Source: a virus (taxonomy: Duplodnaviria; Heunggongvirae; Uroviricota; Caudoviricetes). Taken from it: a stretch of DNA of 9,017 nt. The translations under genes and the position numbers were made by a program. The stretch spans positions 1 through 9,017 of IMG/VR virus record IMGVR_UViG_2693429549_000020; one strand, 5' to 3'. This document shows positions 2,201 to 2,437 of the stretch, in pieces. The notes under the pieces are model-generated. The model worked only from the letters and a program-made list of their open reading frames with translations. It was not told the DNA's origin and made no database searches. Every line of letters begins with the position of its first letter. Position 1 is the stretch's first letter.

Positions 2201-2392
2201 TTATCCTTTGGGTTCTATGCCGCGCCGCTTTAGTTCAGTGCGCCCCAACTCTTTAAGCCAGTTGGCTAGGCTTATGCCGTCGCTCTGTGCTTCTTTGTCG
2301 AATTGCTCTTTTAGCTCTGGAGAAATTCGCATTCTGAATTGTGGGGATTGCCCGTCCCCTTTAGGGCTTTTATCGCGTTTGATTGTTGACAA
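2201..2392 (-). CDS. Ribbon-helix-helix (CopG/Arc-like) DNA-binding protein, candidate repressor
   Basis: Minus-strand ORF containing RMRISPELKEQFDKEAQSDGISLANWLKELGRTEL, which matches the beta-strand / helix A / helix B layout of RHH domains. The longest form starts at TTG 2392 with an AGGTGA SD-like sequence 4 nt upstream; an alternative start is the ATG at 2332 (43 aa). Operator-like repeats lie directly upstream. Confidence 0.6.
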   Translation of the reverse strand: MSTIKRDKSPKGDGQSPQFRMRISPELKEQFDKEAQSDGISLANWLKELGRTELKRRGIEPKG

Positions 2393-2437
2393 GTGGTCAC
2401 CTATTGAATTAGCCTTTCCATTGTTAGGTGGTCACCT
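2386..2437. promoter_or_regulatory. Divergent control region with two operator-like repeats
   Basis: 10-bp direct repeat GTGGTCACCT at 2393-2402 and 2428-2437. The second copy is embedded in the near-palindrome AGGTGGTCACCT (2426-2437). Consensus -35 hexamer TTGACA at 2386-2391 on the plus strand, but no convincing -10. The region lies between the leftward RHH gene and the rightward leader/Icd-like operon. Confidence 0.45.

Follow-up and report, generated by a model that had tools for sequence, protein, structure and literature searches.

A predicted Arc-like repressor and its paired candidate operators before the early operon of a capsid-forming phage satellite

The stretch of DNA analysed here, which we call the window, comprises 9,017 nucleotides (positions 1 to 9,017 of the IMG/VR virus record IMGVR_UViG_2693429549_000020; Caudoviricetes) and is a Gram-negative phage satellite of the capsid-forming phage-inducible chromosomal island (cf-PICI) type. 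An integrase gene (int, 1–1239) and a gene for an AlpA-type protein (1649–1858; PF05930) are followed by two small minus-strand genes (1970–2158 and 2201–2392), and a rightward operon begins at an ATG at 2534. Further downstream lie genes for a DUF4222 protein, a D5_N/DUF5906 primase (4040–5788), SSB and, from 7101, a protease–capsid fusion; int, alpA, primase or replication genes and the element's own capsid genes, the set that we used to recognise a cf-PICI, are therefore all present in one small island. This report concerns the repeats at 2393–2437, between the leftward genes and the rightward operon, which are very probably, judging from comparative sequence evidence, binding sites of the Arc-like ribbon-helix-helix (RHH) protein encoded beside them at 2201–2392.

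The 10-mer GTGGTCACCT is present in two exact copies on the plus strand, at 2393–2402 and 2428–2437, 35 bp apart from start to start. The likeness around them extends leftward to 17 nt at 82% identity (2386–2402 against 2421–2437). The second copy is enclosed by the near-palindrome AGGTGGTCACCT (2426–2437), and the first adjoins the TTG start codon of the RHH gene (2392–2390, minus strand), next to a TTGACA at 2386–2391. An earlier inspection of the letters of the window (the sequence-only reading) had pointed out the repeat and its spacing, the near-palindrome around its second copy and the overlap with the RHH gene start and TTGACA, and all of this holds. By itself, the repeat is not significant. 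When the window was simulated 2000 times with a first-order Markov model, 33% of the simulations held an exact 10-mer direct repeat within 60 bp (0.55 per window on average). The window itself contains another exact direct repeat, TGAGCCATGCA, at 3517–3527 and 3551–3561 (34 bp apart), where the second Icd-like open reading frame (ORF) meets orf75; it is probably there by chance, as such repeats occur in a third of simulated windows. The 8-mer core GTGGTCAC has no further occurrence in the window on either strand, and allowing the 10-mer one mismatch adds a single copy (GTTGTCACCT, 6292–6301, minus strand) inside orf85 upstream of ssb, with about 0.3 expected by chance. The significance of the GTGGTCACCT pair comes from comparative data, not from the repeat itself.

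The minus-strand gene at 2201–2392 encodes a 63-residue protein, a predicted repressor, for which we found 54 homologues of 61–65 residues across the Enterobacterales. Some databases carry a 43-residue form that starts at an ATG near 2332. We rejected this start in favour of the TTG at 2392 because the upstream 20 residues are kept as protein (MSTIKRDKSPKG.G.SP.F, with the N-terminus MSTIKRDKSPKG conserved) and many members have Ile or Leu in place of the internal Met21. Column entropy at the three codon positions of this frame is 39.9, 31.9 and 91.5, highest at the third. The opposite-strand frame is open in just 37 of 80 loci encoding relatives of the protein (48–81% identical, from many Enterobacterales genera), a set in which the DNA upstream of each gene was read for the comparisons below. 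RefSeq/PGAP annotates a 210-residue plus-strand ORF, 1869–2501 in the window (5885–6550 in locus L001 and 6558–7301 in L083), as a ‘hypothetical protein’ (WP_001329530.1, WP_001304194.1) over the RHH gene and its neighbour orf62 in Escherichia coli MS 21-1 and O157:H7 EDL933. Since codon-position variation supports the minus-strand genes, this ORF is most likely spurious; the RHH gene is absent from those annotations, and in EDL933 the opposite-strand ORF stands in its place.

Several lines of evidence relate the protein to phage P22 Arc. A profile of the family matched Arc in the PDB (E = 0.0032), with PQFRMRI aligned to PQFNLRW of Arc, and PHROG 228, ‘Arc-like repressor’, matched the protein with E = 5e-7. 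The AlphaFold2 model (pLDDT 82) places helices at residues 25–37 and 42–56 after an extended N-terminal segment, and Foldseek ranked Arc structures first (TM-score up to 0.90, r.m.s.d. 1.2 Å), followed by NikA, AmrZ, CopG and ParG. The model, the structural search and both profile matches thus agree on the β-α-α fold of about 45 residues that defines RHH proteins, and the gene is a genuine RHH gene, as first described, with Arc as its closest relative of solved structure. Identity to Arc is about 27%, and the Pfam Arc model matched 1 of 27 family members. A scan of NCBIfam gave a weak TraJ match far under its cutoff and nothing else. Databases label the homologues ‘HicB family antitoxin’, and the Pfam HicB model does match weakly in 23 of the 27 members. 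For the window protein the score is 20.4 bits against a cutoff of 21 (E = 4.9e-4) and the match covers residues 17–47 against positions 18–48 of the 51-position model, which is its C-terminal, RHH part. We rejected the HicB identity on the grounds of this score, of the lack of the N-terminal toxin-neutralising domain, for which 63 residues leave no room, and of the lack of a HicA gene adjoining the RHH gene: the neighbour at 1970–2158 belongs to PHROG 21027 and has no Pfam match, in L042 and L056 convergent unrelated genes follow, and in other genera the RHH gene stands alone. A tblastn search of phage records returned five hits, mostly small fragments or satellite-sized records, and the protein is not a common phage repressor.

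Read across the 80 loci, the repeats resolve into two candidate operators. The distal site, O2 (2426–2437), is the near-palindrome AGGTGGTCACCT, or AGGTGACCACCT in the minus-strand reading. The proximal site, O1 (2391–2402), reads AAGTGGTCACCT on the plus strand and AGGTGACCAC on the minus strand, followed by the TT of the TTG start codon; it is a truncated copy in which the final two palindrome positions are instead the first two bases of the start codon. O1 also serves the RHH gene as its Shine-Dalgarno region, with AGGTGA lying 4 nt ahead of the start codon. The same pair is found in 64 of the 80 loci, with O1 in the form AGGT-N4-AC directly against the start codon and O2 as a full 12-mer palindrome, (A/G)(G/T)GT-N4-ACCT, 33–35 bp upstream of O1. 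The 8-bp core, GT-N4-AC, is the same in O1 and O2 within one locus and varies between loci. In loci with an asymmetric core, O1 mostly reads as the reverse complement of O2. In the window's class the two cores are direct, and in the close relative L006 they are flipped, a pattern that a symmetric dimer able to read two half-sites in either order should produce. The repeats first described as a direct pair are thus real, but the unit is a 12-bp palindrome with a truncated copy, most often inverted in relatives with asymmetric cores.

A role in RNA would also fit some of these features. Each copy is near-palindromic, so that O2 could pair with O1 in the leader of the RHH gene (inverted repeat I4) and hide the Shine-Dalgarno sequence and start codon; the two are inverted in most asymmetric classes; and with its AGGTGA 4 nt before the start codon, O1, like its copy, might be a mere ribosome-binding sequence. 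We regard such a role as scarcely credible. The minus-strand fold of 2386–2445 (−12.2 kcal/mol, z = −0.4) is no better than that of shuffled sequences, and the direct cores of the window's class, which are flipped in its close relative L006, leave central mismatches; on these two grounds the O1–O2 hairpin was rejected. In addition, the conserved extended −10 of the RHH gene's promoter (described below) would put the start of its transcript downstream of O2 and hence leave O2 outside it, and covariation of the sites with residues of the protein would go unexplained.

This covariation links the sites to the protein. The core tracks residues 18 and 20 of the RHH protein, which align with Gln9 and Asn11 of Arc, the residues that we take to be base-contacting from the Arc–operator structure (PDB 1PAR). 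Eight residue/core classes were distinguished: PQFRMR with GTGACCAC, PQFKMR with GTGGCCAC, PTFQIR with GTACGTAC, PMFNVR with GTATAGAC, PAFQ(I/V)R with GTGTGTAC, PPFHMR with GTGTACAC, PMLPIR with GCATATAC and PIFSVR with GTATGGAC. None of the 1076 locus pairs that differ at residues 18/20 share a core, 83 of them being at least 70% identical elsewhere in the protein; conversely, 310 pairs with the same two residues share a core at less than 60% identity elsewhere. Three seeming exceptions (L025, L027 and L028) are due to a one-base registration shift. None of 2000 shuffles attained the observed concordance, a test that overstates independence because the covariation is partly inherited by descent. 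In silico, therefore, the protein conforms to the RHH pattern of alternate β-strand residues reading DNA, with residues 18 and 20 corresponding one to one with the cores. Single-residue changes pair with single-base changes, for example R20K with GTGACCAC to GTGGCCAC, and the eight classes form a natural table of β-strand residues against operator bases that should be useful for understanding and engineering RHH specificity.

Cores were also predicted blind for four further proteins from other genera, before their loci were fetched. Three predictions were exact: GTGTACAC for the PPFHMR proteins of E. coli and Edwardsiella, and GTATAGAC for the PMFNIR protein of Sodalis. In the fourth, Enterobacter L089 (PAFQIR), we found GTGCGTAC where GTGTGTAC had been predicted, one base off, with O1 equal to O2. 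A functionless chance repeat would be in keeping with the simulations and with the second repeat of the window at 3517/3551. Given that the two-site layout and the covariation are kept across 64 loci in many genera, with out-of-sample confirmation, its probability is close to nil, a rejection that relies solely on conservation and covariation.

Another protein might bind the repeats, be it AlpA, the protein made from the first rightward gene, or a factor supplied by the host or by a helper phage. Members of the AlpA family recognise repeated sites, related islands need them for induction, and AlpA had been suggested as a binder in the sequence-only reading. Natural module swaps exclude it. L002 and EDL933 have identical AlpA proteins, yet their regulators and repeats differ: in L002 a YlcI/YnfO-family gene and three GTGTT(C/T)AACAC palindromes replace the RHH gene and its repeats. 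In the other direction, the repeats are identical in the window, MS 21-1 and EDL933, while each of the three encodes a different AlpA-type protein and their first rightward genes also differ. Sites of the ACGT class also precede unrelated genes, such as a SymE-family gene in Citrobacter and its relatives, and the one-to-one match of the core with the RHH β-strand residues would have no place in such a scheme. Binding by a protein other than the RHH protein is thus very improbable.

The operators overlap predicted promoters for both directions, which we examined in 62 unique intergenic sequences aligned gap-free and anchored on O2 and on the start codon. The −35 element of the rightward promoter, P_opp, is the TTGACA at 2386–2391 (plus strand), the reverse complement of (T)TG-TCA-A in codons 1–3 of the RHH gene. 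TGTCAA, at +2 to +7 of that gene, is invariant or almost so in the 62 loci. Its Ser2 codon (window 2390–2385) is TCA, with A at the fourfold-degenerate third base in 29 of 29 aligned homologues and every other fourfold-degenerate site scrambled, which shows selection on the DNA itself. An 18-bp spacer separates this element from the predicted −10, TAGCCT (2410–2415), with a predicted start at about 2422; T1, A2 and T6 of the −10 are kept at fixed distance in 48, 53 and 52 of the 62 loci. In L042, the promoter scan detected an equivalent promoter, TTGACA-18-TATGCT, matching at 10 of 12 positions. Downstream of P_opp follow a conserved 5′ untranslated region (UTR), Shine-Dalgarno sequence and start codon.

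On the minus strand, the RHH gene's own promoter, P_RHH, has a predicted extended −10, TGtTAAGGT (2434–2442), that overlaps the left half of O2, with a predicted start at about 2427. The T, G, T, A and T of TGnTAnnnT are kept on this strand in 61, 53, 53, 59 and 59 of the 62 loci, and neither the opposite flank of O2 nor the surroundings of O1 show a mirror image of this conservation. If these predictions are right, O1 would lie in the 18-bp spacer of P_opp and O2 at about +4 to +15 of it, and O2 would cover both the extended −10 of P_RHH and the start region of P_opp. The sites would thus fall over core elements of both divergent units, in line with the divergent promoter pair and consensus TTGACA first proposed. 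P_opp and P_RHH overlap back to back, so that RNA polymerase would occupy only one of them at a time. The alternative cassette of L002 (5257–5540), at the same position in another E. coli satellite, appears from its layout to follow the same control logic with a different regulator. Its promoter is TTGACG-17-TAAATT, and of its palindromes (5487, 5503 and 5528) one precedes the −35, one lies within the spacer and one follows the −10. In its flanks it has orf62, the leader that follows the hairpin and the first 18 codons of the rightward gene in common with the window, which points to exchange of repressor and operators as a cassette.

Together, these data favour a model in which a dimer of the Arc-like protein occupies O1 and O2, thereby repressing the rightward early operon and restricting synthesis of the protein itself, to which we assign a probability of roughly three in four. 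A symmetric RHH dimer would read each 8-bp GT-N4-AC core with its two-stranded β-ribbon, one dimer per core, residues 18 and 20 (Gln and Arg in the window) setting the inner four bases and the invariant Arg22 the outer G/C, while the basic N-terminal tail may touch the AGGT/ACCT flanks. Bound repressor would silence the operon that comprises the Icd-like gene, the isrK and C4 immunity RNAs, DUF4222 and the primase, and occupancy of O2 over the extended −10 of P_RHH would limit its own production; both effects are suggested by the position of O1 and O2 over elements of P_opp and P_RHH. Binding, the stoichiometry of one dimer per site, the transcription starts and the sign of regulation are what we infer from sequence comparison. 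The proposal that the repeats are autoregulated RHH operators gains support in that the sites covary with each other and with the protein's predicted DNA-reading residues.

Several observations weigh against this model. The TAGCCT of the window is weak and falls below the threshold of the promoter scan. The 35-bp spacing (3.3 helical turns) does not put O1 and O2 on one face of the DNA, which argues against simple same-face cooperation. In L022–L024, O2 is the sole site and an ordinary GAGGAG ribosome site stands where O1 would be; O1/O2 cores are mixed in L062 and L080, with which L065, L073 and L075 are grouped as loci with mixed or unresolved sites, and proteins with PAFQMR have unresolved sites containing GTGTCAC. 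A σ70-like promoter, TTGATC-18-TATGAT (2606–2635), lies just upstream of isrK inside the first rightward ORF and could express the isrK and C4 RNAs independently of the O1/O2 switch. The inheritance of the covariation by descent, noted above, belongs here too.

Some of these points suit a second possibility, namely that the RHH protein binds and mainly autoregulates, or activates its own promoter by easing promoter competition, with the operon driven from 2606–2635 or by AlpA-dependent read-through. Mnt of P22 stimulates its own promoter by removing a competing promoter. Besides the weak rightward −10 and the separate promoter-like site, read-through is made conceivable by the terminator scan, which detected no plus-strand terminator between alpA and the orf62–RHH cassette; the terminator-like hairpin with a T-run at 1886–1905, at the end of the leftward RHH–orf62 unit, is of the minus strand only. 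Transcripts from alpA could therefore extend antisense through the repressor gene, and AlpA-dependent transcription that starts upstream may pass convergently over that gene to reach the operon. Induction of the related island EcCIEDL933, for which helper-phage-dependent induction and transfer have been shown experimentally, requires AlpA, which is reported to be the activator of the island genes in EcCICFT073; induction in Gram-negative PICIs has been attributed to it. Set against this are the −35 TTGACA frozen at a synonymous site with a conserved −10 at 18 bp, the conserved 5′ UTR, Shine-Dalgarno sequence and start codon that follow P_opp, and the 10/12 promoter at the same position in L042. 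We judge autoregulation as the main role unlikely; were it correct, the repeats would be a routine operator pair.

The interval between O2 and the rightward gene holds further predicted elements. An intrinsic terminator of the minus strand lies just upstream of P_RHH at 2449–2498, with its stem at 2462–2498 and its T-run at 2449–2461. The hairpin is more stable on the minus strand in 61 of the 62 loci (mean −23.1 against −15.8 kcal/mol), with 221 G-U pairs on that strand against 38, and a T-run usually follows it. This strand bias led us to reject the same hairpin as a rightward leader element. Inside codons 3–5 of the first rightward gene, an extended −10, TGgTATGAT (2541–2549, minus strand), predicts an antisense promoter. 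It occurs at fixed distance in 32 of the 62 loci, as against 4 on the other strand, embedded in unrelated N-termini. The predicted antisense RNA of about 80 nt would run from about 2534 to about 2450 (region 2448–2549, minus strand; −41.2 kcal/mol, z = −6.2), cover the start codon (2534), Shine-Dalgarno sequence (2525–2529) and 5′ UTR of the first rightward gene, and stop at the terminator. SymR lies antisense over the start codon and Shine-Dalgarno sequence of symE, a geometry that the predicted RNA would resemble; Rfam scans of the window and of eight related loci (E up to 1) reported no family, SymR included, over the predicted antisense stretch. K-12 symE is under LexA control, not that of an RHH protein, and when the Citrobacter cassette was used to look for the K-12 symE/symR locus at the DNA level, the RHH gene alone matched, in 15 genomes. 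The sequence-only reading took the repeats as the decision point between the RHH gene and an immunity/replication operon. The rightward unit is indeed an operon of Icd-like, isrK, C4 and primase genes; the two units are not simply adjacent, however, since a minus-strand terminator and the predicted antisense RNA lie between them.

Among known systems, Arc and Mnt of P22 are the nearest in solved structure and sequence (PQFRMR in the window, PQFNLR in Arc). The operator and promoter arrangement of P22 immI (Pant/Pmnt), known from work of the Sauer laboratory, is similar: a small RHH repressor, an operator in the −35/−10 spacer of a promoter, a second operator at the start region of that promoter, and a divergent promoter that overlaps it. 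P22 uses two proteins, Arc and Mnt, where in the window one protein would serve both sites; Arc binds a 21-bp site as a tetramer, whereas the window operators are 12-bp palindromes; the basic N-terminal tail of the window protein is 10 residues longer than that of Arc; and the P22 switch controls ant, in place of a satellite replication/immunity operon. By analogy with MetJ, an RHH dimer centred on an 8-bp palindrome would be the simplest geometry for GT-N4-AC. MetJ binds an 8-bp palindromic met box and needs tandem met boxes and a co-repressor, in contrast to the single sites 35 bp apart in the window.

In Gram-positive PICIs, the repressor gene is divergent from the excision/replication operon. 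The window resembles these islands (SaPIs, with Stl or Rpr) in this respect; Stl is a large helix-turn-helix protein unrelated to the RHH protein, and the orientation relative to int differs. As in the RNA-based immunity of P4 CI and P1 C4-icd, the window operon encodes isrK (seqA-like) and C4 (CI-like) RNAs and Icd-like ORFs. Whether this class of element has a repressor has so far been unclear, with later work naming AlpA alone as regulator, and the compact repressor–operator cassette occupies exactly the place in which one would look for a master repressor. AlpA, Bro-N proteins and C4/isrK RNAs are mentioned in the cf-PICI paper, in the EcCIMP1 paper and in a survey of PICI zones, whereas an RHH repressor or operators are not, and targeted searches of the literature for a PICI repressor of the RHH, Arc-like or HicB type returned nothing relevant. 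The kind of system is textbook; the family and its role in satellites appear undescribed within the searchable literature. A more far-reaching proposal, which we offer tentatively and consider rather less likely to be right than wrong, is that the Arc-like protein is the master repressor of a subset of Gram-negative PICIs including EcCIEDL933. It would silence the early/replication operon through O1/O2 and a SymR-like antisense RNA and would come in eight or more specificity (‘immunity’) types, each excluding the others, helper induction removing it by a phage anti-repressor or by AlpA-driven convergent transcription across its gene.

The minus-strand orf62 (1970–2158), a small ORF of 57–62 residues downstream of the RHH gene (PHROG 21027, E = 3e-16), is conserved beside both RHH and YlcI/YnfO cassettes; in E. 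coli elements it probably comes second in the leftward unit. The first rightward gene (2534–3073, plus strand; Shine-Dalgarno GAGGT at 2525–2529) encodes 179 residues with an Icd-like C-terminus and matches PHROG 29966 end to end, its frame staying open through two embedded RNAs, isrK (2642–2718) and C4 (2743–2830). These form the first of two tandem immunity-RNA units, each embedded in an ORF with an Icd-like end. The second unit, with isrK at 3117–3194 and C4 at 3220–3308, spans 3117–3530 with its Icd-like ORF, and a c4-a1b1 target lies at 3104–3153.

Over the 300 bp that surround the repeats, the window is 100% identical to E. coli MS 21-1 and 98.7% identical to O157:H7 EDL933. The EDL933 copy belongs to an island beside roxA/pepT with capsid, protease and portal genes, which is EcCIEDL933, the prototype cf-PICI. 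Among 5426 complete E. coli genomes, 162 have the module, EDL933 included. The cassette of RHH gene, operators, terminator and predicted antisense promoter also precedes a SymE-family toxin gene (PF08845) in L056 (3575–4195), L057, L059, L063, L064, L070, L071 and L079, and in Pectobacterium L042 the RHH gene lies beside LlaJI and McrB-like restriction genes. These settings make the cassette a portable control module that is not specific to satellites. In L056 and L063, the SymE-associated cassette is located beside tRNA-Sec.

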